39,011 nt of DNA from sequence record DRR378314_685. The stretch is one strand, 5' to 3'. The notes under the pieces are model-generated. The model made no database searches. It had not been told where the DNA came from and saw nothing but the letters and a program-made list of their open reading frames with translations. Positions 789 to 26,127 of the stretch are shown here, one piece after another (position 1 is the stretch's first letter; each line of letters starts with the position of its first letter). The position numbers were made by a program, and so were the translations under genes.

Positions 789-899
789 CTGTGCTAGTGC
801 ATAGAAAGCGGGCAGCATGATGGTTTCCGCATCCAGTCTTTGGCCGCGCGCTTTGGTCATGGCTGGACGCGGGTTAGACCAAGTGGGACAGGATGGGCA

Positions 900-4788: not shown

Positions 4789-4878
4789 ACCTGCACAGTT
4801 TTAGCGAACTCGGTTCGATGCTGAGCGGCCGGAACTGAGTTTGTTGAACTGATTCAGCGACTGTGCGTTGCTGAAATC

Positions 4879-6309: not shown

Positions 6310-6312
6310 GAG

Positions 6313-7254: not shown

Positions 7255-7258
7255 TGGG

Positions 7259-8059: not shown

Positions 8060-8092
8060 ATTGCGAGAGCTTTTGTATCGGAGAATCACCCA

Positions 8093-9784: not shown

Positions 9785-11313
9785 TTGCGTGTGTCCAACT
9801 CGCGGAACCGGATCAGTTCACTGAGGCGCAATCCGGTATATTTACCCATCAGCAGGCAGATCGCCATGATCACGAGAAGCAGTTCAGGGAAGTTGAACAT
9901 CAGATACTCGACATGCGTGTTGGTCATGACGAGGTAAGACGCCGCAGCGACCATCAGGCTGCCGATGCCTTGCTTGATGGCTTCGGTGGCCGAGTATTCT
10001 TCCCAGGCAATCGACATGCGCTCGATCGTCATCGTCAGAATGACCATTGGAAACAGCGATATTGAAAGGCCGATGCGCTGGCCGCTATTGTTCATGATCT
10101 GCGCGATAACGGCCATACAGATAACAATAAACACGACAACGGTCGCCAATCGTGGAACCAGCAGCAACTTCAACTTTTCCAGATAGAAACGCACGGCGAG
10201 TCCCAGCGCGATAAGTGCCGTGAACAGGATGACTCCGTTGACGAGCGCCGTTTCGCGGAACGCAATGCCGATCAGGACAGGCATGAATGTGCCGAGGGTC
10301 TGGAGGCCAATGAACTGGCGGAGGAAGACCAACATCAGAATGCCCACCGGAATGGTCACCAGAACCTGATAGACGAGTTGCGTGGTGATCGGCAGGCGAT
10401 TGAACGAGAACCATTGCATCGCCGAGCCTTCGTCCTTGGCGACACGTTGCACCACATCCGCGACAGCCGCATTGACGGGCTGGATGCTGACTTGCAGGTC
10501 GAGATCGGAGATGCCTTCCGCACGGATGAAATCCTTGGTGCCATGCCAGATCGTGAAGAATTCCTGCGGATCCGGACCTGGGAAGTAACGGCGGTCAACG
10601 CCATCCGCATGATATTCGAGCCAATGCCGGATTTCCGCCCGGCGGCGCGCAGAATCCAAGAATACGCCATTCGCCACGCGGGCAGGGATACCCTGACTGG
10701 TCAAGACATCGCGGGCAAGCGCAAGGCGTGCGATTGGGCGTGGCAGGGCTGGCGATAGCAGGGCGTCGACTTCATCGACATCCCCGTCCACGAAGATCTC
10801 TTCCAGAACGAGATCTGCGAGAGACTCGTCATCGGCTGAGCGCCGGCGCAAGTCCGTGGACCATACGAGGAAAGCCTGTCGCTCAAGGTCGTTTTCTGCC
10901 TCAGGCGCGGCGCGGCGCAGTTTTCGGCGCATGTCGTCGGGAAGGGGGCTTTCAACGGTCTCGCCAAGCAGGCGCGCACGGTATCGAAGCACCTTCCGGT
11001 CATTCGGATAACGATACGTCCAGATGGCGGTCCGGCCCTCATCATTGCGGCCATTCAGCCTCAATCCGAAAGCACCATTGTAGAACTGTTCCTGCGATAC
11101 GCGGCGGTTTTCGCTGTTCGAGGGAACAAAGGTTTCCAGCCGAACTGGCTGGTTGCTCGTATCGAAGTCGAGATAGATCTCGAAATCCCAAGTTGTGGTC
11201 TGCAGGCCGGGGGTCAGCGGATAATCGTGCTGAAGCACTTTCGTCGCGAAGATGCCAAGGCCAATGGCGGCCAGAACCAGGGCAAGTAATCGGGTATGGG
11301 TAAAGCTATTCAC
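9781..11313 (-). CDS. Inactive transglutaminase-like domain fused to a 7TM membrane domain
   Basis: N-terminal TM helix; transglutaminase-like remnant (GIPARVANG, HWLEY) without the catalytic Cys motif; 7TM region with RQFIGLQTLGTFMPVLI, LLLVPRL, FPMVILTMTIER and YTGLRLSELIRF. GTG at 11313 overlaps the upstream stop. Confidence 0.85.
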   Translation of the reverse strand: MNSFTHTRLLALVLAAIGLGIFATKVLQHDYPLTPGLQTTTWDFEIYLDFDTSNQPVRLETFVPSNSENRRVSQEQFYNGAFGLRLNGRNDEGRTAIWTYRYPNDRKVLRYRARLLGETVESPLPDDMRRKLRRAAPEAENDLERQAFLVWSTDLRRRSADDESLADLVLEEIFVDGDVDEVDALLSPALPRPIARLALARDVLTSQGIPARVANGVFLDSARRRAEIRHWLEYHADGVDRRYFPGPDPQEFFTIWHGTKDFIRAEGISDLDLQVSIQPVNAAVADVVQRVAKDEGSAMQWFSFNRLPITTQLVYQVLVTIPVGILMLVFLRQFIGLQTLGTFMPVLIGIAFRETALVNGVILFTALIALGLAVRFYLEKLKLLLVPRLATVVVFIVICMAVIAQIMNNSGQRIGLSISLFPMVILTMTIERMSIAWEEYSATEAIKQGIGSLMVAAASYLVMTNTHVEYLMFNFPELLLVIMAICLLMGKYTGLRLSELIRFRELDTRK

Positions 11314-11833
11314 GGTCTTCTGTTTCGCAGCTGCCAGGAGCAATGAACGTCGAGGCGGAATCGACAAGCACACGGGACGCCATGAATTCGCGTCCTACAA
11401 GGAAATCGTATTCGAATTCTTCCCGGTCAGCCAGATTGACTTCCGCCAGGCCGCTTACGCCGCCGATGCATAGCGGTAAGTGAATCACAGGGCGTCTGAT
11501 GGTTCCGCCCTTTTTCAATTTGATAAGCGCGAAACGCCGAACATTCTGATCGTATCGGACGGTGCGCCCATTCTTGCCGACAAGCCGGAAGCGAACCCAG
11601 TCGTCCTTGCCGGACTTGTTGTAGATGTGAACATCGCGTGCAAACACCGAGCTGGAATCGGCACCCGTATCCAGCTTGCCTTTCATCTCAAGGCCAAGTT
11701 TTCCGACATATACGTTCTCGACATAGCCCATGGTTACCGGGTCGTCGGTCCGGTCGCTGCTGTCAGCGGAGGCTGACATTGCGGGCAATGACAGAAGGGC
11801 CATCGCGGCCACGATAGATCTGAAATACTTCAC
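11306..11833 (-). CDS. Exported retropepsin-like aspartic peptidase (RimK-associated 'ATP-dependent zinc protease' family)
   Basis: Signal-peptide-like N-terminus (MKYFRSIVAAMALLSLPAMSASA), KLDTGADSSS, RRPVI, VNLADRE, LVGREF. GTG at 11833 with an AAGGGA RBS. Confidence 0.85.
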   Translation of the reverse strand: MKYFRSIVAAMALLSLPAMSASADSSDRTDDPVTMGYVENVYVGKLGLEMKGKLDTGADSSSVFARDVHIYNKSGKDDWVRFRLVGKNGRTVRYDQNVRRFALIKLKKGGTIRRPVIHLPLCIGGVSGLAEVNLADREEFEYDFLVGREFMASRVLVDSASTFIAPGSCETEDRE

Positions 11834-12097
11834 GTGAATTTGTCCCTTTGCCTTAATCGAGGCAGTCCTCTGCTCACCTACCATGCGAGCGGTGAAGGCG
11901 ATAGCGTTCGGATCACTTCGGCGTCCCAATTGGGGACGTGGTACAGACTGATAAGTTCCCTGACGACGCCCATTTTTGCCTCAAAAACCTGATTTCGTGT
12001 CATTTCTATGGTGAATACGAGGATCGACTGTGGCCCCGGTCTTGCATGTCAATAAACTGCACCTTCTGCGTGTATCACCCCACAAAAATTAACCAAG

Positions 12098-12122
12098 AAT
12101 AGAATTTTAAAAAAACTCTATT
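12098..12122. promoter_or_regulatory. AT-rich imperfect palindrome, candidate operator in the divergent peptidase/pfaD intergenic region
   Basis: AATAGAATTTT-AAA-AAAACTCTATT, with 10 of 11 arm positions complementary. Confidence 0.45.
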
Positions 12123-12155: not shown

Positions 12156-12305
12156 GAACGTCGGAGGGAGAGAGCTTCGGCTGTCTCGGAGACTGTAAGA
12201 CGCTGGGGAGTGGTTCGGTTCGCAATCACAAATGCCGGGCGTCATGTTGACGTTGAGAATGGATCGAACCCCGAAGAATTCGGGGGTGATAGGCAGGAAG
12301 GCTTT

Positions 12306-13823
12306 ATGGATCGGTCGGTGGATCAGATTCTGGACTGCATTCGCGAGAATGTGGACGTGCATGTCCAGAATGGCGTGCTGGTTGCGAAGTCGGCAGATGC
12401 GCGATCTTTATCTCTGCCTGCGATCTATCCCGAATGGCTGGGAGACGCGGCGTTTGCACAGGCGCATGGTGCTCGATTCAACTATGTCGTCGGCGAAATG
12501 GCGCGGGGCATCGCCACGCCCAGGATGGTTATCGAGGCCGTTCGAGCAGGATGTGTCGGGTTCTATGGCAGCGCCGGACTGAAGCCCGACACGATCCAGG
12601 CGGGCATACAGGAAATCAAGGCAGGCATTGCGCAGGGGCAAACCTCTTGGGGTGCGAATCTGATTCATTCACCCCAACAGCCGGGCTACGAAGCAGAAGT
12701 CGTGGACTTGTTCCTGTCGATGGGCGTCAGGCGCGTTTCGGCGTCAGCCTATATGCGTTTGTCGCCAGAAGTCGTCCGATACACAGCGCTTGGCTTGTCG
12801 AGGGACGGACAAGGCGGCATCCGGCGCGCCAATCATGTTTTCGCGAAAGTATCGCGCGCTGAAGTCGCGCGGCAATTCATGCAGCCTGCGCCAGAGAAAA
12901 TTCTGCGCGCGCTGGTATCAGAAAATCGCATATCGCCGGAGCAGGCCGAACTTGCGGCGCAGGTTCCCGTCGCGCTCGACATCACGGCTGAGGCGGATAG
13001 CGGTGGTCACACCGACAACCGCGCCGCGGCGCCCTTGTTTTCATCGCTGTCTATTGCGCGTGATCAAGTGGCTGCGGAAACGGGTATCAATGCGAACATG
13101 ATCCGTATCGGCCTGGGCGGCGGCATTGCCACACCGCACGGCGTAGCGGCGGCGTTCCAGATGGGCGCAGCCTATGTCCTGACCGGATCAATCAATCAGG
13201 CGGCCATCGAGTCGGGTTTGTCCGAACCTGCGCGACAATTGCTCGCCAAGGCTGGGCCAGCCGATGTCGGGATGGCTCCGGCAGCGGACATGTTCGAACA
13301 AGGCGTCGAAGTGCAGGTGCTGAAGCGCGGAACCTTGTTCGCCATGCGGGGGCGCAAACTGCACGCGCTCTACAAGGCGGGCTTGTCGTTCGAAACGATG
13401 ACACAGAAGGATCGGGCTTGGCTGGAAGACGTATTGGGCGAGCCATTTGACGATGTCTGGCAGAAGACACGAGCCTTCATGCTGCAATCAAACCCGAAGG
13501 AAGCGGCGCGCGCTGAGGTGGATGGGAACAAGCGGCTGGCGCTGGTGGCGCGTCGCTATCTGTTCATGGGCGCACAATGGGCGCGTGAGGGTGTGGCCGA
13601 CAAGGCCTCGGACTATCAGATCTGGTGCGGGCCAGCCCAGGGCGCATTCAATGAATGGGTTGCTGGCACATTTCTGGAGCCAATCGAGAGCCGGACGGTT
13701 CGCCAGATCGCCCTGAATCTGATGGAAGGTGCGGCACGATTGACGCGAGCAGGGCAAATGCGCGCTGCAGGCATTGCTGTGCCGCCCACTGCGTTCTCCT
13801 GCACGCCAAAAAGGTTTCTCTGA
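12306..13823 (+). CDS. pfaD: PfaD-family FMN-dependent enoyl reductase (PUFA synthase/polyketide type)
   Basis: YVVGEMARGIA, WGANLIHSP, VSASAY, FAKVSRAEVA, AEADSGGHTDNR, APAADMFEQGVEVQVLKRG, DYQIWCGPAQGAFNEW. ATG at 12306 with an AGGAAG RBS. Confidence 0.92.
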   Translation: MDRSVDQILDCIRENVDVHVQNGVLVAKSADARSLSLPAIYPEWLGDAAFAQAHGARFNYVVGEMARGIATPRMVIEAVRAGCVGFYGSAGLKPDTIQAGIQEIKAGIAQGQTSWGANLIHSPQQPGYEAEVVDLFLSMGVRRVSASAYMRLSPEVVRYTALGLSRDGQGGIRRANHVFAKVSRAEVARQFMQPAPEKILRALVSENRISPEQAELAAQVPVALDITAEADSGGHTDNRAAAPLFSSLSIARDQVAAETGINANMIRIGLGGGIATPHGVAAAFQMGAAYVLTGSINQAAIESGLSEPARQLLAKAGPADVGMAPAADMFEQGVEVQVLKRGTLFAMRGRKLHALYKAGLSFETMTQKDRAWLEDVLGEPFDDVWQKTRAFMLQSNPKEAARAEVDGNKRLALVARRYLFMGAQWAREGVADKASDYQIWCGPAQGAFNEWVAGTFLEPIESRTVRQIALNLMEGAARLTRAGQMRAAGIAVPPTAFSCTPKRFL

Positions 13824-13850: not shown

Positions 13851-16800
13851 ATGAGTTCAAAAGCCGCCACACCGATTGCCATTGTAGGCATGGGCGCGAT
13901 CTTCCCAGGGCGCGGGGATGTGACCGGGTTCTGGCGTGATGTGTTCGAGGGACGCGACTTGTTGTCGGATGTGCCGTCCACGCATTGGCTGACCGAAGAC
14001 TATTATGACAGTGATCCGAGGACGAAGGACAAGACTTATGGCAGGCGGGGCGGGTTCATTGATCCTGTCGCTTTCGATCCGCTGACCTTCGGTATCCCTC
14101 CAAAGGCGATGGAGGGGACGGATACAGCACAGTTGCTGGCGCTGGTCGCGGCATATGCGACGCTTCAGGATATTGAGCGTGATAGCGAGGGTCGGATCGA
14201 CAAATCTCGTACGAGCGTGGTCTTGGGTGTAGCGTCTGCTACCGAGTTGACGGCGCATATGGCAGGTCGTCTCCAACGGCCGGTCTGGGTCAATGCCATG
14301 CGCGAAGCCGGACTGCCGGAAAGTGAAGTCACTGCGCTCGCCGAGCGGATCGAAAGCCACTATGTCGAATGGCAGGAAGCGACATTTCCGGGACTGCTCG
14401 GAAACGTCGTAGCCGGACGGATTGCCAACAGGTTTGATCTTGGCGGCAGCAACATGGTCACTGACGCGGCATGTGCCTCAAGTCTTTCTGCACTGAGCAT
14501 CGCGTTGCATGAACTGCGCTCTGGCGACAGCGACACGGTGCTGACTGGTGGCGTCGACGCGCTCAATGACATCCTGATGTATATGTGCTTTTCAAAAACG
14601 CCGGCCTTGTCGCCAACAGGTGACTGCCGGCCGTTCTCGAACGAAGCCGATGGCACCATGCTTGGCGAAGGGATCGGCATGCTGGCGCTGCGCCGGCTCG
14701 AAGATGCGGAACGCGATGGCAACACGATCCATGCTGTGATCCGGGGACTTGGCGGTGGATCGGATGGTAAAGGCACAGCCATTTATGCGCCGGTGCCAGA
14801 AGGGCAGGCGCGCGCCTTGAGGCGTGCCTATGAGCAAGCGGGGTACGGCCCGGAAGCCGTCGACCTGGTTGAAGGGCATGGCACCGGGACGAAAGCCGGT
14901 GACAAGGCTGAGCTGGATGGACTGCATCTGGTTTTCGGTGAGGTTGACTCTGAAGCCCCATGGTGTGCGCTTGGGTCCATCAAGTCCCAGATCGGACATA
15001 CGAAGGCCGCCGCCGGCGCCGCCAGTCTTGTCAAAGTCGTGAATGCGCTCAGTCGTAAAATCCTTCCGCCTACAATCAAGATCGAAGAACCTGCGGAAGT
15101 CATCAAGGATAGCCCAGCCTTCTACCTGAACACCGAGGCTCGCCCCTGGATTGCGCCCAAAAAGCGCCCGCGCCGCGCGTCTGTCAGTTCATTCGGATTT
15201 GGCGGAAGCAATTTCCATGTGACGCTGGAGGAGTATGTCGGCAAGACAGCGGCGAAGCCTTATCGGGTGATGCCAGCAGAGCTGTTTCTGTTCAGTGAAG
15301 ATTCGGGCAATGCGCTTGCCTCCGCGATTGAGGCTACCCCTGGTCAGCTAGACGAAGCCGGGCTGGCGTACGCCGCCTCGCAAACGCACGCTGCCTTCAG
15401 GGCTGACGCTCCGGCGCGCGCAGCAATCATTGCCGAGTCTCTGGCGGATCTGAAGTCAAAAGCAGAAAGCCTGTCCCAGCAGATCAGGGCTGGCGAGATC
15501 GGTGTCCGTCCGTTCAAGGCTGATTGCGTTGCCTCGCTGGACGCGCCGTTGACTGGCAAAACTGCTTTCATGTTTTCTGGCCAGGGTAGTCAGTATGTCG
15601 GCATGGGTTCTGATCTGGCTATGGCCTTCCCTCTGGCGCGTGAGGCATGGGACAGGGCGGCCGGGCACAAACATACCGGCAGGTTGCGGTTGGATCGACT
15701 GTCCTTTCCACCTGCCGCCTTTGATCAAGTCGACTTCGGCGCTCAAACGCAGACTCTGACAGAGATGCAGCATGCCCAGCCCGCCATCGCGGCGGTCGCA
15801 CTTTCGCAATTGGGACTGCTATCGCAGCTTGGCCTCAATGTAGACATGGCCGCCGGGCACAGTTTCGGGGAAATCATGGCGTTGCACCTTGGCGGCGTAA
15901 TGAATGCTGACACCGCGCTGACAGTTGCGGCAGAACGCGGCGCCCTGATGGCGAAGGCAGCTGGCAACACCAAGGGCGCGATGCTTGCGGTTCAGACGGA
16001 TGCAGAAACGATCAAACCCGTGCTGCAAACAGTGGGGCAGGGCCTGGTGCTCGCCAATGACAATGGACCGGACCAAGTCGTCCTCTCAGGCGCGCAGGAG
16101 GCAGTTGAGGCGGCCAAGGCGGAATGCGACGCGCGAGGCCTAAAGGCGCGGATGCTTCCGGTGGCCACCGCCTTCCATTCCGAGATTGTCGCAGAGGCGG
16201 TGCCGCCTTTTGAAAAGCTGCTTGCCAAGCAGAAGCTCCGCGCGCCGAAACTCGATGTCTATGCGAATGCCACCGCCCGGAAATATGATGCGAAAGTCGC
16301 CGAATTGCCGGCATTCATCGCCGACCAGCTGATCCAGCCGGTGCGTTTCCGTGAGCAGGTTGAGGCCATGTACGCGGACGGTGCAAGGGTTTTCGTCGAA
16401 GTCGGTCCTGGTGGTGTCGTGACTGGTCTCGTCGGTCATATATTGGGTGATCGGCCTCATCTCGCCATTTCGCTGGACCACAAGCGGCGCAATGGGGTGA
16501 ACCAGTTCCTGCTCGCGATTGCCACGTTGGGCGTAGCAGGAATCGAGCTCGACTATCCGGCGCTGTTTGCTGAACTTCCGCCACAACCGCCCAAACCGGC
16601 TCCGTCCAAGCATGCAGTGAAGATCACTGGCGGCAATTACAACAAGCCGTATCCGCCGGCCAAGGGCGCTGAGGGGGGCGCGACACCGAACCCCGAAAAG
16701 CCAGCGATGCCCACGAAATCCACCATGGCGGAATCATCCGCTCCTCCTTCGGTCCGGGCTGGTGTTTCACCACGACCGGCTGCTCAAGACCTTCCAGAAC

Positions 16801-17765
16801 AGACAGGCGCTTCCATGACTCAAGATCCGTCCGCACCGAGCCCGTATTTCGCTCCGTTACAAAGTTCCGCACCTGCAGTACCCGCTTCGACCACTGAGCG
16901 TATCATGCAGGAAGTTTCCCAACGCCACGCGGATTATATGGCAGCCATGTCGACGGCGCATTCGGCATTTCTGAATGTCGCGGTTCAACTTGCCGGACAA
17001 GTGCCAAGCGAGCCGGCAAAGCCAGCCGCGTTGCCAGCGCCTGCTCCAGCACCAAAGCCGGCGCCCGTTGCTGCGCCATCTCCTGTCGTTCCGTCGCAAG
17101 CCAATGGGGCCTATCATGAGGACGCGCCCGAGCCAGCACCTGAACCCGGACCGGTTCCAGAAAGTGCTCCGGCGCCGAAACCTGCCAGTCCTGCGCCCGT
17201 GGCAGCGCCTGCAGTCACGCAGCCGGTACTGGGGGCAGATTCGGTTGGCCTGGTCCGCGCGATAATTGCAGAGAAGACGGGGTATCCGGAGGATATGCTT
17301 GAACCGGACATGGATCTGGAGGGCGAACTCGGCGTCGACTCGATCAAGCAGGTGGAGATTCTTTCTACGCTGAGAGAGCGCATGCCGGACCTCCCGGAAA
17401 TCGACCCTGAACAGCTTGTTGAATTGCGCACGATTTCGGCAATTGCCGAAATGATTGATGCATCCAGCACGGGAGCGGCGGCCCCAGCTGCGGCGCCTGT
17501 GAGTGTGTCGGAGCCGGAAAGGGGCGCGGCCAATGGCGGCATTTCCGCCGATACAGTTCGGGCATTGATAGCGGAGAAGACCGGCTATCCGGAAGATATG
17601 CTGGAAGATGACATGGACCTTGAGGGCGAGCTTGGGGTCGATTCGATCAAGCAGGTGGAAATCTTGTCCGCCCTGCGCGATCAGCACCCGGAGCTGCCCG
17701 AAGTCGATCCAGAGGTTCTTGCCGACTTGCGCACGATCCGGGCGATCGCTGATTTTTTTGGGTAG
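13851..17765 (+). CDS. pfaA: PfaA-like iterative type I PKS/FAS: KS-MAT-ACP-ACP (0-frame product; KR follows in the -1 frame)
   Basis: KS triad DAACASS/HGTGT/GHTKAAAG; MAT GHSFG and TAFHS; Pro/Ala linkers; two ACPs with LGVDSIKQVEI. Ends at DFFG* directly after ACP2. Confidence 0.9.
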   Translation: MSSKAATPIAIVGMGAIFPGRGDVTGFWRDVFEGRDLLSDVPSTHWLTEDYYDSDPRTKDKTYGRRGGFIDPVAFDPLTFGIPPKAMEGTDTAQLLALVAAYATLQDIERDSEGRIDKSRTSVVLGVASATELTAHMAGRLQRPVWVNAMREAGLPESEVTALAERIESHYVEWQEATFPGLLGNVVAGRIANRFDLGGSNMVTDAACASSLSALSIALHELRSGDSDTVLTGGVDALNDILMYMCFSKTPALSPTGDCRPFSNEADGTMLGEGIGMLALRRLEDAERDGNTIHAVIRGLGGGSDGKGTAIYAPVPEGQARALRRAYEQAGYGPEAVDLVEGHGTGTKAGDKAELDGLHLVFGEVDSEAPWCALGSIKSQIGHTKAAAGAASLVKVVNALSRKILPPTIKIEEPAEVIKDSPAFYLNTEARPWIAPKKRPRRASVSSFGFGGSNFHVTLEEYVGKTAAKPYRVMPAELFLFSEDSGNALASAIEATPGQLDEAGLAYAASQTHAAFRADAPARAAIIAESLADLKSKAESLSQQIRAGEIGVRPFKADCVASLDAPLTGKTAFMFSGQGSQYVGMGSDLAMAFPLAREAWDRAAGHKHTGRLRLDRLSFPPAAFDQVDFGAQTQTLTEMQHAQPAIAAVALSQLGLLSQLGLNVDMAAGHSFGEIMALHLGGVMNADTALTVAAERGALMAKAAGNTKGAMLAVQTDAETIKPVLQTVGQGLVLANDNGPDQVVLSGAQEAVEAAKAECDARGLKARMLPVATAFHSEIVAEAVPPFEKLLAKQKLRAPKLDVYANATARKYDAKVAELPAFIADQLIQPVRFREQVEAMYADGARVFVEVGPGGVVTGLVGHILGDRPHLAISLDHKRRNGVNQFLLAIATLGVAGIELDYPALFAELPPQPPKPAPSKHAVKITGGNYNKPYPPAKGAEGGATPNPEKPAMPTKSTMAESSAPPSVRAGVSPRPAAQDLPEQTGASMTQDPSAPSPYFAPLQSSAPAVPASTTERIMQEVSQRHADYMAAMSTAHSAFLNVAVQLAGQVPSEPAKPAALPAPAPAPKPAPVAAPSPVVPSQANGAYHEDAPEPAPEPGPVPESAPAPKPASPAPVAAPAVTQPVLGADSVGLVRAIIAEKTGYPEDMLEPDMDLEGELGVDSIKQVEILSTLRERMPDLPEIDPEQLVELRTISAIAEMIDASSTGAAAPAAAPVSVSEPERGAANGGISADTVRALIAEKTGYPEDMLEDDMDLEGELGVDSIKQVEILSALRDQHPELPEVDPEVLADLRTIRAIADFFG
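17245..17760 (+). repeat. Tandem duplicated ACP domains within pfaA
   Basis: Two copies of (V)RAxIAEKTGYPEDMLExDMDLEGELGVDSIKQVEILSxLR at about 17245-17460 and 17545-17760, separated by an Ala/Pro linker. Boundaries are approximate. Confidence 0.9.
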
Positions 17766-17800
17766 GGGGCGGCGGAGCGCCAGCCGCGCTCTCCCGTCCC
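17753..17800 (+). other. Candidate programmed -1 frameshift signal (T_TTT_TTT slippery heptamer plus 3' hairpin)
   Basis: GAT TTT TTT GGG TAG. The -1 frame stop TGA at 17750-17752 and the 0-frame stop TAG at 17763-17765 bracket the T7 run. A 6-nt spacer is followed by hairpin 17766-17800 (14 of 15 positions paired including 2 G-U, loop CAGCC). Confidence 0.7.
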
Positions 17801-19216
17801 GGCCCTCAGGCCGTTTCGGTTCCGGACTATGAAAGTTCAGTACGTGTCGTTTCACTCGGCGCATCACAGCCCTTCAGCAGGGTTGTCGATATCGCTGCGC
17901 AGGGGCCGTTCGCAGTATCGGGTGCGGCGCCGGAGCTTGCATATGCCCTTGTCGAGTCCCTGCAGTCGCAAGGTGCGCAGGCAGGGATTCTGGGCGAGGC
18001 ATCTGATGACTTTCGCACTGTCATCCTCACCGAAGGGCATTCAGGTCTTCCTGTCACGGAACGGCATTGGCAGGCCTTGAATCTGTGTCGGCAGTTTCAT
18101 GACCGCGGCGTTCGGATAATCATGTTGGAGCCGTCTTCTGAGGCGGCTGCTGATCAATTGTGTGGGCTGTCTGGACTGTCGCGAACTTTGCGTCAGGAAT
18201 GGCCGAACCATGATGTGGTGACGTGGAGTTTGCCCGCTGGCGAACGCGTAACTGGGTGGGCCGAATTGGTAACGACCGCTCTGGGCACCGATTTGTCTGA
18301 CGCGGTTTTGACACGGCAAGGAGCGGCCATTCAAGCAATTCACCAAGCACCTCGATTGAGCCGAGCCGTCGCCGAAGCGTCAAATGTCTGGTTCGTTCCA
18401 GGCGGTGCGCGCGGCGTAACCGCGGCGTGTGTGAAAGAGCTCGCTCGCAGACAGTCCGGCTCAGTGTTTGTGCTCGCGGGCCGCTCAGACATTGTCCCGT
18501 GGCCAGAAGGGATGGACGTTACAAGCGACATGAAACAGTTGCGCGGGGCGCTGATTTCGGTCGCTCGTGCGAGCGGTCAGACGCCATCGCTTCCGGACGT
18601 CGATCGACAGGCGAAAGCTCTGCTGGCGGGTCAGGAGATTCGAGAGACGCTGGACGATATTTCGATGTCCGGCGCGCAAGCAGTGTATTTACGCACCGAC
18701 ATGTCAGATCGTGCGAGTATCCAGTCCGCCATTGCGAAAGTCTCACAACAGTATGGCTCCATTACAGGACTCGTCCACGGGGCAGGGGTGCTGTCGGATG
18801 GGCTGGCTCTCAAGAAATCCCGCGAAGATGTCGCGTATGTTTTCGGGCCGAAGGTTGAAGGCTTGGCCATGTTGATGGAAGCTATCGATCTATCACAGCT
18901 CCGCCATGTGGGCCTTTTCTCGTCCGCATCGGCCGTATTCGGAAATGTCGGACAGAGTGACTACGCTATGGCGAATGCCTGGTTGGGCGCGATGGCGAGA
19001 AAGCTCTCTGCCGATTTGCCTGACGCCATTGTGAAGAGCTTTTGCTGGGGACCCTGGGCTGGCGGCATGGTCGACTCGTCTCTCGCAGGTCATTTTGCTT
19101 CGCGCGGTATTTCCCTGATCGGCCTGGAAGATGGCGCACGTATCTTCGCTGATCAAATTCTACAGGGTGAACGAAGTGAAGTTGAGCTTCTGATCGGGGA
19201 TGAGTGGGCAGGATGA
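17753..19216 (+). CDS. Ketoreductase (KR/SDR) module of PfaA, encoded in the -1 frame
   Basis: Frame is open from 17753 (FFWVGGGGAPAALSRPGPQAVSVPDYESSVRVV...) but the first possible start is TTG at 18077. Motifs PGGARGVTA, LAGRS, HGAGVLSD and SSASAVFGNVGQSDYAMAN. No DH domain follows. Confidence 0.85.
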   Translation, partial: FFWVGGGGAPAALSRPGPQAVSVPDYESSVRVVSLGASQPFSRVVDIAAQGPFAVSGAAPELAYALVESLQSQGAQAGILGEASDDFRTVILTEGHSGLPVTERHWQALNLCRQFHDRGVRIIMLEPSSEAAADQLCGLSGLSRTLRQEWPNHDVVTWSLPAGERVTGWAELVTTALGTDLSDAVLTRQGAAIQAIHQAPRLSRAVAEASNVWFVPGGARGVTAACVKELARRQSGSVFVLAGRSDIVPWPEGMDVTSDMKQLRGALISVARASGQTPSLPDVDRQAKALLAGQEIRETLDDISMSGAQAVYLRTDMSDRASIQSAIAKVSQQYGSITGLVHGAGVLSDGLALKKSREDVAYVFGPKVEGLAMLMEAIDLSQLRHVGLFSSASAVFGNVGQSDYAMANAWLGAMARKLSADLPDAIVKSFCWGPWAGGMVDSSLAGHFASRGISLIGLEDGARIFADQILQGERSEVELLIGDEWAG

Positions 19217-22200
19217 GTAGGTCAGACCAGTTCGAACCGATTGCAATCGTCGGACAGGGGTGTGTTTTGCCAGGCGCAATGAGCCCGGCAGAGCTCGGCG
19301 ATATCGTGTTCAACAAGCGCATCGTGTACGGGCCAGTATCGGCCAATCATCTGGGATTGTCTGAGTCGGAAGCGCTCTCCCGCGCATATGTGTCCGGAAC
19401 CGTTGACGGGTTCGAAGCCGCCCTCCGTCCGAATGACGCCTCCGAGTCCTGGCAGGCAGCCGCCCTTGCTGATCCGGTTTGTGGGTGGACGTTGCGCGCT
19501 GCGCTGGACGCATGGTCTGACGCGCGCACACCAAAAGTTCGCAAGGGGAAGGGCGGCGTATTCGTCGCGAACCTGTCCTATCCGTCTATGGCGCACGCGG
19601 AACATGCAGCCGAATTCTGGGCCGAGCAGAAGGCCGACAATCCGCGAGCGACGTTGAACGCGTCCCTTCCGCCACACCTGATTGCTGATGTTCTGAGATT
19701 GTCAGGTCCGGCCTTTTCCCTTGATGCAGCTTGTGCCTCCTCGCTTTATGCGCTGGAGATCGCCTGCCGCAGGTTGCAGTCGGGAGCGATAGACTGCGCG
19801 CTCGTAGCGGGCGTGAACGCAGCGGACAATCTTATCCTGCATATTGGGTTCGATGCTTTGAAAGCGCTCAGTCCGACCGGGCAATCCCGTCCATTTGTGA
19901 GGGGGGCGGATGGACTGGTACCCTCTGAGGGGGCGGTGGCAGTTGTCTTAAAGCGTTTATCTGACGTTCGCAAGAAAGACCGGGTTCATGGCGTGATCCG
20001 CGGCATTGGTCTGTCCAATGATGGCCGACGCAAAGGGTTGCTGGCACCATCTGGTGATGGTCAGCGAGAAGCAATGCGCCGTGCCTATGACATGGCTGGA
20101 CTGGACCCGGCCAGTGTGTCCTATCTGGAGTGCCATGCGACCGGGACACCGACGGGTGATGGTGTCGAAGTGCAGGCATCCACCGAAATGTTCGCAGACA
20201 ATGAGAGCCTAGCCATTGGTTCATTGAAGGCAAATACCGGGCATCTGATCACGGCGGCTGGGCTGGCCAGTCTTCTGAAGCTGACCGAAGCTTTCAAACG
20301 TGAGAGCTTGCCGCCAACGCCGGTCGCCGGGGACTTGATCGGACCAGTTCAGGAGGGCGGACTCACCGTCGTCCAGAATGCCGCGCCTTGGAAAATGAAA
20401 GGCGGTGTCCGCCGAGCTGCCATCAGCAATTTTGGGTTTGGGGGCAATAATGCCCATTTGATCCTGGATCAGTATGATCCAAATGCGAAACAAAGAGAGC
20501 CGATCGATCCCGTATCCGTACGTCCACAAGTGGTGATTTGCGGCACCGGTCTCATGGCCGGAACTGATCGAGGTGCGGACGCCGTGACGCGCAGGATCAT
20601 GAATTCTCCGTTGAAACCCGTCGGGCCTTGCCGGAAGATTGGCGCGGACCCCAGAGCTGCTCGCACACCCCCAACGGATTTGCTTGAGGCCGAGCCGCAA
20701 CAGCTGGCGATATTGGATGTGGTTGAGGAGGCACTGTCCTCGGTAGCGCCTGTCGATCCTCAGCGCGTCGGCATCTTCACAGCAATGGGGTGCGCGTCGG
20801 ACTCTGCGCGTTGGTTGCTGAGAGAGCGTCTGTCTGCGCTCACAGCCTTGCGCTCGGATTCTGATGCGCTGGTGCAAGCCGAGGCTGCTGTGGCGCCGCC
20901 ATTACAAGCCTCAACAGTGCTGGGGGCGATGGCGAACATGACAGCCAATCGCGTTACCTACGCTCACGATTTTCATGGCATGGGGTTCTCGGTGTCGGCG
21001 GAAGCGGCATCCGGCCTTGCCGCGCTTGATCTCGCCCTTGAGGCGCTCGGCAGCGGGCGGCTGGATATGGTGATTGTTGCGGCGGCAGACTTCGCGGCGG
21101 AGCCGGTCAGAGCATCAGTTTTGGCTGAGCTTGGAGTCACGGTCCAGCCGGGTGATCAGGCTGCTGCGCTAGTGCTCAAGCGTGCGGATGACGCAGCGTC
21201 TGCCAAGGATCATAGTTTCGGATCAATAGAGTTCGTTGATTGGACCAGAACACAAGCCTTTACTGAAAGCGTCTTGGACGAGGTGTTTGGAGTCGCTCCG
21301 TGTGCATCTGTCGTGTTCGATCTGGCACTAAACGCGCAATTGGCCGCGCGCGGCCATATGCTGACGGCTGGCGGGGCAATTCCCGATCTGCGAAGTTCGC
21401 CAGAGGCCTTGGAAATTGTAGCACGCTCGACGCCTGCGAATTGTACAGGCGCGCTCTCCTTCTGCCCTGCAGACGCCAGGCCTGTGCCGGATGCCTTGCG
21501 ACCGACGCCATATTTGTATTGGGCTGCCGGAAAGGACAAGGCAACGCTCGCGAGTCGAACTGCATCGGGGAAGGCGGGGGGCAGAGGGAAATGCCGCATC
21601 GCAATTCTCGCGCCGACAGGAGACGCGATTCGGGAGCGGCAGGAATCCGTACAGAAACAGTTGGAGCAGGATGAAATTCCAGACGGGGAGGGCGTTCAGT
21701 TTGGGGAGGGCAAGCCCGAAGGTGAGCTGGCTTTCATGTTTACTGGATCGGCCGCCGTCTATCCGCGTATGGGGCGCGGCTTGCTTTCAGCATTTCCGGA
21801 ATTGCGTCAGCGCCTGTCAAAACTCGACAAGGCTGAAGAGATTGCACCATTGTTGGCGCGCGCCAGTCTGAGCGAGTTTGAACAATTGTGCGTCGGTACC
21901 TTGTTGAGCCAGGCACACGCGATCCTCCTGCAGGATATACTCGGCGTTAAAGCGGATGCCGCACTCGGACTGTCGCTTGGCGAGAGCAATGCCCTGTTCG
22001 CATTTGGATTCTGGCGAGATTCCGGCGCACTGCTGGACGAGATTTCTGACGCGGCCATGTACGAGCGTCACATCGGAGGAGATTTCGAGACTGCGAAAAA
22101 GGCCTGGGGACCGAACGTTCCAGCGGACTGGACGAATTGGCGGGTGCAGGCGCCGGTTGAGGCCGTAAAAGCAGAAGTCACGAAACATGACGGTGTCGAG

Positions 22201-25200
22201 ATCACGATCATTTATTCGCGGACCGACTGCATGATTGGTGGCCCAGCCGAAGCCTGCCGACAGGTTTGCGCAGCATTGCGGCCCGGCAGTGGCGCGAAGA
22301 TGCATCAACACCTCATCGTCCATGCCAAGGCGATGCAACCATTCGCAGAAACCTGGCGGCGTCTGCACACGCGCAAGCTACATAAAGGGAAAGACGTTCG
22401 TCTCTATGCCAACGCCACCAATGCAGCCTATGAGCCCACAAGCGAACTGGCCGCAGACATGCTTACCCGGCAGGCCGTCGATACGGTAAACTTTCCGCCC
22501 ACAGTCGAGCGAGCATGGAAGGATGGTGTACGAACATTCGTTGAGCTTGGTCCACGAGACACACTGACATCGGCGCTGGGAAACATTCTTGAAGGCAAGC
22601 AGTTCAAGGCTGTCGCCACAGACCGGATCGAATCTGCTGACCTGTCCCAGATTGCGGAGTTGGCGGCATTCCTGTTCGCAGACGGGCGCGCCATCAAGAT
22701 GAAGCCAGTCGCGGAGGCACTGGACGCAGCGAGGCGCAATGCGTCAAGGCGGCCCGAAGCTTGGCCACTCACTCGGCCGGTCCCCTACGCGCCGCCAATC
22801 GTTCCCCCGCTTGCATCATCCTTCAGGATGCCCGCAGCACCTGCGCTCTCTGATATTGTCTACCCTCCATCAAGTCCCGCTACGACGATGGATGAGCCAG
22901 TTCACTTTGCGCCGCCTCCGTCGGACCGGCGATTACCGCCGCCCCGCAAGGTGATTGCGGGTACAGAGCCCTTGCTGCCGCGTACGCCGGTGGGACCAAA
23001 CTGGGATTATCCGGAGATTGAGAAATCTGCTCGCGAGAAAATGTCGAAGTTTTTTGGTAAAAGCTTCAGGAAGCAGGATACGTACGACCGCCAAGTTCGG
23101 CTGCCAGCGCCGCCTTTGCTGCTTGTGGATCGGATTACCGGAATCGACGCTGAAGCAGGGGTGGAGAGTACGGGTGTCATCTGGACCGAAACGGATCTGA
23201 CTGAGGACCAGTGGTTCATCCATGACGGTCGCATCAGGCCAGGGCCGCTGATTGAAAGTGGCCAGGCGGATTTGACCTTGATTGGTTGGATGGGGGCAGA
23301 CTTCAAGAACCAGAATGACCGTGTCTACCGCCTGCTTGGGTGTGAAATTACATTCCATGACGGAGGCCTGCCGGAGCCTGGCGAAACGCTACGCTTTCAG
23401 ATCGAGATAACGGGTCACGCCACATTGGCTGGCGTGCGGATGTTCTTCTTCCAATACGATTGTTTGGCGGGTGATCGTCGCGTCTTTTCGGTGCGCAATG
23501 GACAGGCTGGTTTCTTCAGTGATGACGAACTTGCGTCCGGAAAAGGCGTCATGTGGGATGCCACAAAGGACGCGCCACCAACCGCTCAGCCTACTGAGTT
23601 CAAGGCGGAGGGCGCCAGCCGAAAGCGCGCTTTCACTGCCGAAGATATCGCAGCCTATCGGGCCGGTGATGCATGGGCCTGCTTCGGTGATGGGTTCGAA
23701 CTGGCAGCAGCCCGCTCTCGTCCGCATCGCTTGCCTGATGATCGTCTTGCCCTGTTCGATGATGTGGAGATGTTCGATCCACATGGAGGCCCATGGGGCA
23801 GGGGGTATCTCAAGGCTCGCGCGCATGTGCCGAAGGACGCCTGGTTCTACGACGGTCATTTCCACAATGATCCCTGCATGCCGGGGACCCTGATGGCAGA
23901 GGCGGCTGTTCAGACGCTGGAGTTCTACGCAGCGGCGGCGGGCCTGCTAACCGAACGGGATGGCTATGTCTTTGAGCCAATGCCGGGGCATATGGCGAAG
24001 TTCGTGTGCCGGGGGCAGGTCATTCCGGATGCAGATCATGACGTGACTTATGAAGTGTTCATCGATGAGATCGTCGATGGCGAGGCCCCCGAAATCTACG
24101 CCTCCTTTTTGGCGAGCTCCGATGGCAAGAAGGTCTTCCATTGCCCGCGCTTTGGTCTGCGCTTGCGCAGGGATTGGCCGGTGCCTCGTGTCGCTGAACA
24201 ACCGATCCGGACAGGCCCTCAGGGCGAGAGTCGTGGAGATCATGCAGCCTTGCTTGATTGCGCCAATGGTGCGCCGTCAGCAGCTTTCGGCGACATGTAT
24301 GATCGGTTCGACCGGGAAGGTATCGTGCCGCGCCTGCCTCAGGACCCCTATCATATGATGACGCGTGTTCTGGATGTGTCGACACGTCCGGGAGTTCCGG
24401 AAAAAGGCGCGCGGGTTCGTGCGGAATATGACATTCCGCCAGATGCCTGGTACTTCCACGACAATCGCAATGGCGCCATGCCTTTTGCCGTTCTGTCCGA
24501 GATCGCACTGCAGCCTTGCGGTTGGCTGGCCAGCCATTGTGGTTTCGCGCTCTCTGGGGACCTCAAATTCCGAAACCTGGAAGGCGAAGGTGTCCTTCAC
24601 CGTGAACTGAGACCAGAAGACGGCACATTGGTTGTCGACAGTGAGCTGACTGCTTTCTCCCGTGTCGGACCAATGACGATTGTTACATTTGCCGTGAAGG
24701 TAAGCTTGGCCAGCGGTGAGCCTGTCCTGGAGTTGACGACCCAGTTTGGTTTCTTCCCGGCTGCCGCACTGGCGCGGCAGGCGGGCCTGTCAGACAAACC
24801 TCATTTCCGAGACGCGTTCGAACTACCAGGCCAGAATGTGAAGACGAAGAGGATCGAGAAACGCCTGCCCAGTGGCCAGCTTCGCATGCTTGACCGCGTT
24901 GACTATTTTGATGCCGAGGGCGGCGAAGCGGGGCTTGGTCTGATAAGAGGGCGACAGGTGGTTGATCCTCATGCGTGGTATTTCAAGGCGCACTTTTATC
25001 AGGATCCAGTTCAGCCAGGCTCACTTGGTCTCGATGCCCTCTCGCAGCTTCTTGCGCGTGCCATCCTGCTCAAGGGAATGGATCAGGGGATGAGCAGTCC
25101 GCATTTCGAAACCATCGCAAGCGGCGCACCCTTCAAATGGAGCTATAGAGGTCAGGTAACGCCCGATAAGAAAGAGGTCGTAACCGTAATGGAAATCACC

Positions 25201-25317
25201 TCGATTGAAGAGCGGGGAAACGGGTATCTGGTTACGGCTCGTGGCAGTCTGTGGCGCGATGGGCTTCGGGTGTATGAAGTTGGTCCCTTCAGTCTTGCTC
25301 TGGAAGATCGGGTCTAG
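19213..25317 (+). CDS. pfaC: PfaBC-like fusion: KS-CLF-AT-(pseudoDH-DH)x2
   Basis: Active KS (LDAACASS, ECHATGT, GHL); degenerate second KS/CLF (SAEAASG); PfaB-type AT (GLSLGE); FabA-like DH motifs GHFHNDPCMPG and AHFYQDPVQPG, each preceded by a degenerate hot-dog domain. ATGA overlap with the KR stop. Confidence 0.9.
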   Translation: MSRSDQFEPIAIVGQGCVLPGAMSPAELGDIVFNKRIVYGPVSANHLGLSESEALSRAYVSGTVDGFEAALRPNDASESWQAAALADPVCGWTLRAALDAWSDARTPKVRKGKGGVFVANLSYPSMAHAEHAAEFWAEQKADNPRATLNASLPPHLIADVLRLSGPAFSLDAACASSLYALEIACRRLQSGAIDCALVAGVNAADNLILHIGFDALKALSPTGQSRPFVRGADGLVPSEGAVAVVLKRLSDVRKKDRVHGVIRGIGLSNDGRRKGLLAPSGDGQREAMRRAYDMAGLDPASVSYLECHATGTPTGDGVEVQASTEMFADNESLAIGSLKANTGHLITAAGLASLLKLTEAFKRESLPPTPVAGDLIGPVQEGGLTVVQNAAPWKMKGGVRRAAISNFGFGGNNAHLILDQYDPNAKQREPIDPVSVRPQVVICGTGLMAGTDRGADAVTRRIMNSPLKPVGPCRKIGADPRAARTPPTDLLEAEPQQLAILDVVEEALSSVAPVDPQRVGIFTAMGCASDSARWLLRERLSALTALRSDSDALVQAEAAVAPPLQASTVLGAMANMTANRVTYAHDFHGMGFSVSAEAASGLAALDLALEALGSGRLDMVIVAAADFAAEPVRASVLAELGVTVQPGDQAAALVLKRADDAASAKDHSFGSIEFVDWTRTQAFTESVLDEVFGVAPCASVVFDLALNAQLAARGHMLTAGGAIPDLRSSPEALEIVARSTPANCTGALSFCPADARPVPDALRPTPYLYWAAGKDKATLASRTASGKAGGRGKCRIAILAPTGDAIRERQESVQKQLEQDEIPDGEGVQFGEGKPEGELAFMFTGSAAVYPRMGRGLLSAFPELRQRLSKLDKAEEIAPLLARASLSEFEQLCVGTLLSQAHAILLQDILGVKADAALGLSLGESNALFAFGFWRDSGALLDEISDAAMYERHIGGDFETAKKAWGPNVPADWTNWRVQAPVEAVKAEVTKHDGVEITIIYSRTDCMIGGPAEACRQVCAALRPGSGAKMHQHLIVHAKAMQPFAETWRRLHTRKLHKGKDVRLYANATNAAYEPTSELAADMLTRQAVDTVNFPPTVERAWKDGVRTFVELGPRDTLTSALGNILEGKQFKAVATDRIESADLSQIAELAAFLFADGRAIKMKPVAEALDAARRNASRRPEAWPLTRPVPYAPPIVPPLASSFRMPAAPALSDIVYPPSSPATTMDEPVHFAPPPSDRRLPPPRKVIAGTEPLLPRTPVGPNWDYPEIEKSAREKMSKFFGKSFRKQDTYDRQVRLPAPPLLLVDRITGIDAEAGVESTGVIWTETDLTEDQWFIHDGRIRPGPLIESGQADLTLIGWMGADFKNQNDRVYRLLGCEITFHDGGLPEPGETLRFQIEITGHATLAGVRMFFFQYDCLAGDRRVFSVRNGQAGFFSDDELASGKGVMWDATKDAPPTAQPTEFKAEGASRKRAFTAEDIAAYRAGDAWACFGDGFELAAARSRPHRLPDDRLALFDDVEMFDPHGGPWGRGYLKARAHVPKDAWFYDGHFHNDPCMPGTLMAEAAVQTLEFYAAAAGLLTERDGYVFEPMPGHMAKFVCRGQVIPDADHDVTYEVFIDEIVDGEAPEIYASFLASSDGKKVFHCPRFGLRLRRDWPVPRVAEQPIRTGPQGESRGDHAALLDCANGAPSAAFGDMYDRFDREGIVPRLPQDPYHMMTRVLDVSTRPGVPEKGARVRAEYDIPPDAWYFHDNRNGAMPFAVLSEIALQPCGWLASHCGFALSGDLKFRNLEGEGVLHRELRPEDGTLVVDSELTAFSRVGPMTIVTFAVKVSLASGEPVLELTTQFGFFPAAALARQAGLSDKPHFRDAFELPGQNVKTKRIEKRLPSGQLRMLDRVDYFDAEGGEAGLGLIRGRQVVDPHAWYFKAHFYQDPVQPGSLGLDALSQLLARAILLKGMDQGMSSPHFETIASGAPFKWSYRGQVTPDKKEVVTVMEITSIEERGNGYLVTARGSLWRDGLRVYEVGPFSLALEDRV

Positions 25318-25985
25318 TCTGTGGCGGTCGCCAAACTGACCATGAGATGATCATGATGAGTGCAGCCTACGCTGAAGACTCTGTGTCCGGTCGAAATGAG
25401 AGCGTGTGGGTCTGCTCCTGTCAGGAACGCATCCGGAAGACTCAGGTTTCGCGCGCCCATACGAAATCCTTCGCCGACGGCTTTCATCACAGCTTCTTTT
25501 GCGGTCCATAGACGATAGAAGGCGGGGAGCGCATCAGCTCCCAGCCTGGACAGAAATGCCGTTTCCTCCGACGTGCACACCATGTTCTGCATAGACGTCC
25601 AGTCGACAGGACGCATATGCTCGATATCGATCCCCAAGGCATTTTGCCGCGACACTGCCACGGCCGACCAGCCTGCGGTCCTGGAAATCGAAATGTGCAT
25701 GCCGGGTGAGGATGAAAGGGCAGGGGCACCCTTGCTATCGTGCGTCACGTCTACTTGGGAGACGGATTTTCCCGTCAGATCCGCCAATTCCTGCTTTACG
25801 GCGATCAGCGAGCGTTCAAGATCGCGGCGCTTTCCCGCATCTTTGAGCATGGCAAGCCGTTGGATATCCACCGTGCTCAGCATGCCGGAGTGTGCGGCAA
25901 CATCCGCATGATCCATGATCCGAACAATCGTGTGATCCGGCACATGAGCGTCAAAATGGAAAGCGAATGGGTCGATGGAAACCAT
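25314..25985 (-). CDS. Sfp-type 4'-phosphopantetheinyl transferase (PfaE-like)
   Basis: KGAP...HISISRT, LGIDIE and FYRLWTAKEAVMKAVGEG. Convergent with pfaBC (shared CTAG). The start is uncertain. Confidence 0.85.
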   Translation of the reverse strand: MVSIDPFAFHFDAHVPDHTIVRIMDHADVAAHSGMLSTVDIQRLAMLKDAGKRRDLERSLIAVKQELADLTGKSVSQVDVTHDSKGAPALSSSPGMHISISRTAGWSAVAVSRQNALGIDIEHMRPVDWTSMQNMVCTSEETAFLSRLGADALPAFYRLWTAKEAVMKAVGEGFRMGARNLSLPDAFLTGADPHALISTGHRVFSVGCTHHDHLMVSLATATD

Positions 25986-26127
25986 GTAGAACCAGCTGCA
26001 AGCCTTGTGCCTGTGACTTTTGGAACGGTAGGGAAACGCGATTGTGCAGCGAAGAATATGCACAGGCCACTTATTTCCGCTAGAAGGCGCACTCGTTCCA
26101 ATCCGCCGCCCCCAAGTGATTTCCGCC

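Follow-up and report, generated by a model that had tools for sequence, protein, structure and literature searches.

A putative programmed −1 ribosomal frameshift at the ACP–ketoreductase boundary of a PfaA-type megasynthase gene in the family of Hyphomonas

In the canonical PfaA of marine gammaproteobacterial polyunsaturated fatty acid (PUFA) synthases, the domains follow one another in a single polypeptide, KS-MAT-ACPn-KR-DH. A stretch of DNA of 39,011 nucleotides (nt) from sequence record DRR378314_685, hereafter the window, carries a pfaA-like gene in which this continuity is broken: the open reading frame (ORF) closes directly after the second ACP, and the ketoreductase (KR) lies in the −1 frame, which lacks a plausible start codon. 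How, then, would the KR be made? Comparison of this junction with related genomes makes a programmed −1 ribosomal frameshift the probable answer, with a KS-MAT-ACP2 protein of 1304 amino acids (aa) and a KS-MAT-ACP2-KR fusion of 1788 aa predicted as the two products of one pfaA-type gene. The elements in question are the following.

13851-17765, plus strand: pfaA-like 0-frame ORF of 1304 aa, ending ...IADFFG-TAG (Pfam ketoacyl-synt 8.8e-60, Acyl_transf_1 2.3e-41, PP-binding in two stretches)
17550-17756, plus strand: ACP2 (Pfam PP-binding, residues 1234-1302), with the candidate slip site at its extreme end
17753-17759, plus strand: candidate slippery heptamer U_UUU_UUU, in X_XXY_YYZ phase with the pfaA frame (sequence, heptamer census)
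17760-17765, plus strand: 6-nt spacer consisting of the sense codon GGG and the 0-frame stop TAG at 17763-17765 (sequence)
17766-17800, plus strand: 3′ hairpin of 14 base pairs with a 1x1 internal loop and a 5-nt loop, closed by GGG...CCC (folding, covariation, covariance model)
17753-19216, plus strand: −1 frame of 487 aa, with a linker of about 21 residues predicted to be disordered and a complete KR di-domain of the polyketide synthase (PKS) type (Pfam KR 2.9e-30, AF2, Foldseek)
18077-18079, plus strand: TTG, the first start-capable codon of the KR frame (residue 109), implausible as a start (within predicted helix 101-114)

The frame junction in the window and in related genomes

Positions 17748-17800 of the window read ...GCT GAT TTT TTT GGG TAG GGGGCGGCGGAGCGCCAGCCGCGCTCTCCCGTCCC..., with TGA at 17750-17752, seven T (T7) at 17753-17759, GGG at 17760-17762 and TAG at 17763-17765. 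Translation of 13851-17765 gave 1304 aa with the C-terminus ...AIADFFG, and Pfam placed KS, KS-C, MAT and two PP-binding domains (ACP1 and ACP2) in this product. The −1 frame runs without interruption from 17753 until it terminates at 19214-19216; its 487 aa begin FFWVGGGGAPAALSRPGPQ..., so that the predicted fusion would have 1301 + 487 = 1788 aa and the junction peptide ...AIADFF-WVGGGGAPAALSR. A preliminary description, made from the letters of the window alone, had proposed these junction coordinates, the T7 heptamer, the TGA and TAG limits and the 6-nt spacer, and all were reproduced in the sequence. Its two product lengths agreed with translation and Pfam, and folding returned the GC-rich hairpin of 14 pairs at 17766-17800, 6 nt past the heptamer, that it had drawn. 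The −1 frame indeed contains no ATG, GTG or TTG until 18077, and where a linker followed by folded-looking sequence had been noted, the AlphaFold (AF2) model had residues 1-21 disordered and then a KR fold. Homopolymers of at least seven occur at only two places in the 39-kb window, the T7 at 17753-17759 and an A7 at 12109-12115; the A7 is intergenic and lies upstream of the PfaD-like gene.

Comparisons with relatives were anchored on the nearest genome, G001, which is 98% identical across the junction and has the same T7; the Hyphomonas atlantica locus L088 also matched the window at 98%. The window stretch is present in sequencing runs from 14 studies. As independent data we used Logan contigs, with the limits that minority U8 transcripts fall below contig resolution and that RNA libraries can include DNA. 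Two RNA-library contigs from one sample, X14 (17300-17908) and X15 (17300-17884), show 13 substitutions and 0 gaps, and contig X4, from one further DNA run, covers 17300-18300 with 0 gaps; no indel across the T run is listed in any of these three. Contig X16 does not bridge the T run and consists of pieces at 17300-17577 and 17763-18131.

The frame break was then counted in related genomes. Among the 41 relatives examined first, 23 genomes had strong KR matches; the KR open frames in these were 286-710 aa long and never about 1800 aa, and in no family genome did the KR frame reach back through ACP, MAT and KS. Within the genus, junction DNA was matched in 64 of 80 genomes. After removal of duplicates there were 65 distinct junctions including the window (L020, whose contig ends before the ACP, was omitted), and in 64 of these the KR frame was −1 relative to that of the ACP; the pattern GAT TTT TT(T/C) NNN stop GGG occurred in all 65. 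In the alphaproteobacterial family of Hyphomonas as a whole, the KR was found in 77 of 201 genomes, distributed by genus as g1 43/46, g263 3/15, g265 18/45, g272 11/19, g273 1/2 and g279 1/2, and in none of the twelve other genera of the family. A further 34 junctions, 33 from five other genera and one from the genus, had the same cassette with the KR at −1 in every case. Overall, the KR was at −1 in 98 of 99 junctions from six genera, with KR identity as low as 37%. The junctions come from isolates, metagenome-assembled genomes (MAGs) and single-contig genomes, and the cassette is also present in three named isolates, H. atlantica, H. beringensis and H. pacifica. In three genomes of genus g272 (G404, G453 and G458; loci L143, L141 and L142), the KR frame extends over 2613-2892 aa with the upstream −1 break retained, an arrangement that looks like an in-frame fusion of the KR to the PfaC-like protein downstream.

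Outside the family, the KR was mostly found in long frames. At the class level, 2 of 301 genomes matched besides G001, with the KR in frames of 1836 and 1512 aa. At the phylum level, 19 non-family genomes matched, and 13 of these had the KR in frames of 1512-2951 aa; three of the six short KR frames outside the family lie at contig ends. In L105 and in the planctomycete L103, the ACP, an Ala/Pro linker and the KR stand in one frame with no stop, and in G609 the KR is likewise in frame with its ACPs. The best 120 longer proteins listed from a large database were 32-45% identical and belonged to other phyla, and no fused protein above 45% identity was among them. One genome of an unrelated family in the same phylum, G590 (L148:2690-2770), has a run of ten A (A10) at the ACP end, the KR at −1 and an ATG 41 nt past the stop. 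It was the sole genome of its genus examined, and two matched relatives have the KR in frames of 2105 and 2153 aa; the A10 may be a homopolymer error of the MAG, or slippage may have arisen independently at this domain boundary.

The heptamer, the stop and the hairpin

Conservation of the slip site was measured over 87 distinct 55-nt cassettes. The heptamer was TTTTTTT in 59, TTTTTTC in 27 and different in one, with variation at Z only, as X_XXY_YYZ permits. The codon before it ended in T in 86 of 87 (GAT 82, GGT 2, AAT 1, GCT 1), and the first Phe codon was TTT in 95 of 96 sequences. Third-position diversity was 0.02 at GAT and 0.00 at the first TTT, compared to 0.19-0.70 in the 14 preceding codons, and TTT is the minority Phe codon in the genes of the window (0.35). 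The two Phe residues are not a general feature of such domains: ACP1 ends in ...AEMID without Phe-Phe, and the in-frame outgroup ACPs also lack it at this place. The 0-frame stop was always one codon past the heptamer and was TGA in 34, TAG in 32 and TAA in 21 cassettes, with 16 different forms of the codon in between. Thus, the letters that X_XXY_YYZ requires are fixed and the free letters vary, whereas the stop keeps its position but not its sequence. The spacer from the heptamer to the structure was 6 nt in every junction. Upstream, ATC CGG at 17736-17741, which is 11-16 nt before the heptamer, had third-position diversities of 0.24 and 0.19 compared to 0.38-0.70 elsewhere upstream of GAT; the dip may mark a stimulatory element on the 5′ side or simply reflect codon preference.

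The segment 17766-17800 folds as (((((((.(((((((.....))))))).))))))) with 14 pairs, and the 60-nt stretch at this hairpin has a folding energy of −34.7 kcal/mol. The strong evidence for a hairpin beyond chance is comparative. When all 99 junctions were folded, each had a stable structure (−9 to −35 kcal/mol) from the first base after the stop. Almost all of them formed a single hairpin closed by GGG...CCC, the exceptions in an unconstrained fold being L003, L034, L004, L141 and L122. The inner stems are diverse and include GGAGCGC/GCGCUCU, GGAACGC/GCGUUCU, GGUGAGG.../...CUCACC, GGGGAGGC/GCUUCCC, CGCC/GGCG and GCGCC.GGCG.... With the same scoring, the mean energy after the stop was −21.4 kcal/mol compared to −8.6 kcal/mol at 2610 random control positions of the same loci, and 68 of 87 junctions were more stable than every one of their 30 control positions.

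Covariation was scored in the 87 sequences. Paired cells made up 72.5% compared to 65.9% in shuffles, and the covariation score was 0.290 compared to 0.192; none of 500 shuffles reached either value, and slid controls all scored at most 0.19. An in-register subset of 62 junctions with a 35-nt hairpin, picked solely by the position of the closing CCC, gave 78.6% paired compared to 70.3% and a score of 0.313 compared to 0.187, again with 0 of 500 shuffles reaching each value. Double-sided changes occurred in 10 of the 14 pairs in this subset, for example at pair 19-47 (AU 28, GC 16, GU 13), pair 24-42 (GC 26, CG 11) and pair 28-38 (CG 13, AU 12). The Infernal realignment was gapless, and 12 weak antisense or off-target matches were removed by a tighter threshold. 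A covariance model of the cassette (R1) found exactly one site per genome in four of four genomes, always the pfaA junction. Rfam had no match over 17500-18000 with E up to 1.

The hairpin is also coding sequence in the −1 frame, where it corresponds to the ACP-KR linker. The 3′ arm CCGUCCC, which is conserved, encodes Arg-Pro (R15 and P16, both nearly invariant), and therefore constraints on the RNA and on the peptide overlap there. In the lineage of the window, the spacer GGG can in addition pair with GGCC past the hairpin, which lengthens the helix (17760-17812), and a second small hairpin, GGCCCUCAGGCC, abuts the main one; neither feature is conserved in the family.

The ketoreductase frame and the ways to translate it

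The product of the −1 frame is a PKS KR domain (Pfam KR 2.9e-30), and a sequence search of the PDB agreed with this assignment. The AF2 model of the 487-aa product, built from 49 sequences, had a pLDDT of 91.4, and its predicted fold opens with a strand at residues 30-35. Foldseek aligned the entire model with the PKS KR di-domains 5ktk and 2fr0 over about 480-510 columns at a TM of about 0.7, and the catalytic-type residues are invariant in the KR alignment. The TTG at 18077 falls past four strands, two helices and family-conserved motifs of this model, and therefore a KR begun there would miss much of the structural sub-domain. No Shine-Dalgarno (SD)-like run precedes this TTG.

To survey start codons, 98 translations of the KR frame, each beginning at the heptamer, were aligned. 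A start-capable codon in all 98 sequences was found in no column; the best column, a conserved Val that is often GTG, had one in 52. The first start-capable codon lay anywhere from codon 3 to codon 109, with none before residue 109 in the window and none before codon 76 in its nearest relative, and no sequence had a stop within the first 170 codons of the KR frame. In the genus, the −1 frame had a third-position excess from the hairpin to the Val (0.48/0.45/0.64) and further on (0.49/0.45/0.69), as judged from an alignment that was guided by the −1 frame and favours that pattern somewhat. The hairpin itself was without periodicity (0.37/0.33/0.39).

These observations suggest the following course of events. 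Ribosomes on pfaA would arrive at GAU UUU UUY at the end of ACP2, with the GC-rich hairpin, 6 nt downstream, positioned at the mRNA entrance. On U_UUU_UUY, two tRNA-Phe would move back by one base. Shifted ribosomes would read the hairpin-encoded linker of about 20 residues and then the complete KR di-domain to give the 1788-aa product; unshifted ribosomes would stop two codons on and give the 1304-aa product, which ends one residue past ACP2. Sharma et al. (2014, PMC4066793) describe UUY codons in the A site and homogeneous heptamers as prone to frameshifting in Escherichia coli. Because no KR start codon is conserved, frameshifting would be the route to the KR, and it is likelier to be the sole route to an essential KR than a device that makes the KR dispensable. 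The efficiency of the shift would set the ratio of KR-bearing to KR-less subunits, and it may thereby tune KR stoichiometry or the reduction state, as the preliminary description had supposed. That ribosomes shift here, and with what efficiency and to what purpose, we infer from these elements. A more tentative extension, which we would put forward as a minority view, is that the site acts as a set-point device with gag-pol logic. KR-less and KR-bearing PfaA would then both be needed in a fixed or regulated ratio, for example as mixed KS dimers with sub-stoichiometric KR, and hairpin stability would make the ratio respond to temperature or translation rate. If so, decoding would be the step at which physical conditions act on the synthesis of a membrane-active lipid.

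The same fusion protein would result if RNA polymerase added one U in the T6-7 run, so that some mRNAs encoded the fusion in frame. Transcriptional slippage sites are long homopolymers, usually of 8-9 or more, at which the codon phase is irrelevant, and the known hairpins that stimulate such slippage lie upstream of the run. The pfaA junctions differ on each count. The runs are T7 (59) or T6 (27) and are phase-locked; in 27 of 87 cassettes the run is no more than T6, with C as the next letter, and longer runs such as T10 do not occur. The run has a fixed phase with the 0 frame and the preceding wobble T is kept despite amino-acid changes, neither of which slippage requires, and the covarying hairpin stands 6 nt downstream, a geometry that fits the ribosome. 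The RNA-library contigs X14 and X15 have T7 with no gaps. On the other side, U7 runs can also make RNA polymerase slip, and minor U8 transcripts would be compatible with the contigs. According to Sharma et al. (2014, PMC4066793), U7 and A7 runs are under-represented in E. coli genes, possibly through slippage. On balance we consider transcriptional slippage improbable as the source of the fusion.

Alternatively, pfaA and the KR could be two separate genes, with the KR starting at a GTG, an ATG or a non-canonical codon past the hairpin and with the T run, stop and hairpin serving mRNA stability, a pause for ACP folding or translational coupling. Some genomes offer such starts. GTG encodes the conserved Val in 52 of 98 sequences, one clade has an ATG 44 nt past the stop, and G560, from an unrelated lineage, has an ordinary split with a GTG 11 nt past the stop. 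Independent initiation may therefore occur in the species that bear the GTG or ATG, but it does not hold for the window, where, as in the nearest relative, the first candidate lies inside the predicted fold. Two separate genes would also leave the scatter of first start codons and the conserved wobble position of the heptamer unexplained, as well as the −1 offset, which is kept in 98 of 99 junctions although the linker from the hairpin to the KR fold varies in length. The coding-type third-position pattern, moreover, begins upstream of the Val. Separate genes are thus a distinctly improbable account of this locus.

Another kind of recoding at the same place, namely termination-reinitiation or a hop from the stop and hairpin instead of tandem slippage, would fit the stop, which is positioned as strictly as the heptamer, and locus L141, which has only a U_UUU tetramer. 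However, the codon before the stop offers no re-pairing since it has 16 forms, the window has no start codon for reinitiation, and the conserved letters match X_XXY_YYZ exactly. We regard this as very unlikely. Least credible of all is an artefact or decay, that is, a homopolymer sequencing error or a pseudogenised pfaA: T7 is a classical site of indel errors and one strain carries a disruptive deletion (L004/L091, below), but the break recurs throughout the census and in the contigs of one further DNA run and one RNA-library sample, the KR keeps invariant catalytic-type residues and a confidently predicted fold, and the frameshift signals are themselves under selection, so that the census and the independent contigs refute this candidate as far as comparison can.

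Besides the start codons and the slippage-prone run named above, several points weigh against a programmed ribosomal frameshift. The sole exception in the census, L004 (1456-1510, handle G008), has a 32-nt deletion of the hairpin 3′ arm and the start of the linker; its KR is in frame 0 behind TAA and its −1 frame stops immediately. The same junction is found in L091 (Hyphomonas sp. L-53-1-40), and in this strain the KR may not be made or may be made by read-through only. L141 (1541-1595, minus strand, handle G453) reads CAT TTT CAC TAG; it retains the stop, the hairpin and the −1 offset despite the degenerate heptamer, and it may be a single-tRNA slip site of lower efficiency. The junction counts overstate independence because the genomes are kin. 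The hairpin of the window is modest when taken alone, with z = −2.52 and 4 of 200 dinucleotide shuffles folding as well, and the DNA is GC-rich. Two of the covariation measures were not above shuffles: pairs changed on both sides (43 of 500 and 178 of 500 shuffles reached the observed value) and further pair types (86 of 500 in each set). RNAalifold did not arrive at a consensus structure for A3, the model-fitted alignment, and the inner helices vary in register and length, with hairpins of 32, 35 and other numbers of nt; the positional energy control and the in-register subset were therefore added. No clear SD-like 5′ stimulator and no SD consensus was found upstream of the heptamer. Finally, the case for the frameshift is built on sequence comparison throughout.

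With these points taken into account, we consider it likely that T_TTT_TTT, the 6-nt spacer and the stem-loop together bring about a programmed −1 frameshift. The comparative test supports this core claim of the preliminary description, as the frame break, the T run, the stop and a covarying hairpin were found kept among homologous clusters in 98 of 99 junctions over six genera. The alternatives of assembly error and phase variation that it had allowed for are refuted by the presence of the break in all examined family genomes, single-contig ones included, and by the T7 in the independent contigs; a close homologue in frame was not found.

The gene cluster and comparison with known systems

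The Pfam domains of the five cluster ORFs correspond to a KS-MAT-tandem ACP-KR subunit, a PfaD-type enoyl reductase (ER), a PfaC-type KS/CLF/FabA-DH subunit and a 4′-phosphopantetheinyl transferase (PPTase). The genes that accompany pfaA are listed below.

12210-13823, plus strand: PfaD-like enoyl reductase gene of 537 aa, the first gene of the cluster (Pfam FabD_helical_ins 4.9e-17, weak NMO)
19204-25317, plus strand: PfaC-like gene of 2037 aa with KS, CLF-like KS, AT and FabA-type DH repeats (ORF list, Pfam)
25314-26129, minus strand: 4′-phosphopantetheinyl transferase gene, PfaE-like (Pfam ACPS 3.3e-15)

The start of the PfaC-like gene overlaps the KR-frame stop by 13 nt. By its sequence, the cluster is assigned to a PfaA-type secondary-lipid megasynthase, similar to PUFA synthases, with a lipid product that is predicted by type only. 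The genes upstream of the cluster (840-11929 of the window) seem unrelated to it; they comprise a GT20 gene (trehalose-phosphate-synthase-like), a GH15 gene and an operon with genes for a circularly permuted ATP-grasp, an alpha-E, a transglutaminase and a proteasome-type subunit, and, on the opposite strand, genes for an ATP-grasp, a 7TM-transglutaminase and a Zn-protease.

Viruses and insertion sequences commonly use programmed −1 frameshifting. Among ordinary bacterial genes, only a handful of cases are known to us (dnaX, csoS2, copA and a few more). Our literature searches found no description of frameshifting in a polyketide, fatty-acid or PUFA megasynthase, in line with the preliminary description, whose author knew of no described recoding event in PUFA synthases. 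Searches for Hyphomonas with frameshift, for pfaA with frameshift and for ribosomal frameshifting with ketoreductase and ACP returned nothing relevant, and no paper was found that links Hyphomonas to pfaA or a PUFA synthase. The main text of Antonov et al. 2013 has only a polyketide cyclase, under translational coupling, and its supplementary tables might list the cluster; in the accessible part of Atkins et al. 2016, polyketide, PUFA and Hyphomonas are not mentioned. From the sequence comparison, we regard the pfaA junction as a recoding signal that is of a known kind but has not been described before, in a gene family with no earlier known case. A complete catalytic domain of a megasynthase is apparently attached through recoding, with a covarying signal over six genera. 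If this is true, the combination of U_UUU_UUY, a stop-containing 6-nt spacer and a hairpin would be a clean bacterial frameshift cassette, and decoding could set the stoichiometry of domains in an assembly-line enzyme. The annotation of about a hundred genomes, in which the KR would be called as a truncated stand-alone gene or pfaA as broken, would need to be fixed, and heterologous expression of such clusters would depend on the host reproducing the frameshift.

Compared to canonical PfaA, the window cluster has the same order of KS, MAT, tandem ACP and KR, and a PfaD-like ER, a PfaC-like KS/CLF/AT/FabA-type DH protein and a PPTase are present as in a canonical PUFA synthase. It differs in that there are only two ACPs, that the KR occurs only beyond the frame break, and that no DH follows the KR: the KR frame ends at 19216, and Pfam found only KR and SDR families, and no PKS-type DH, in the 487-aa product.

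Among systems with two overlapping frames, the pfaA junction can be set beside several known cases. Transcriptional slippage sites occur as long A/T runs in insertion sequence (IS) elements, Thermus dnaX and Shigella mxiE; they share with pfaA a homopolymer at the frame junction and the same type of fusion product, but the pfaA runs are only 6-7 long, are locked to the codon phase, and have the conserved hairpin after and not before them. CsoS2 of alpha-carboxysomes and E. coli copA are cellular −1 frameshifts that give two isoforms; the shift truncates those proteins, whereas the pfaA shift would add a catalytic domain. In IS3-family elements (IS911, orfA-orfB) and in retroviral gag-pol, −1 frameshifts produce fusions in mobile elements and viruses. 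As in pfaA, the upstream ORF ends just past the heptamer, the startless downstream ORF is made only as a fusion and a 3′ structure follows, but pfaA encodes a host lipid/polyketide megasynthase and is conserved vertically over six genera. E. coli dnaX (tau/gamma) has the heptamer A_AAA_AAG and an upstream SD-like element, and its shifted product is the shorter one. Like pfaA, it is a chromosomal, non-mobile gene with a homopolymeric heptamer, a short spacer, a 3′ stem-loop and two products of one gene, in a set ratio in the case of dnaX. In contrast, Hyphomonas pfaA has U_UUU_UUY without a clear SD-like element, and its shifted product would be the longer one, with a whole enzyme domain added.

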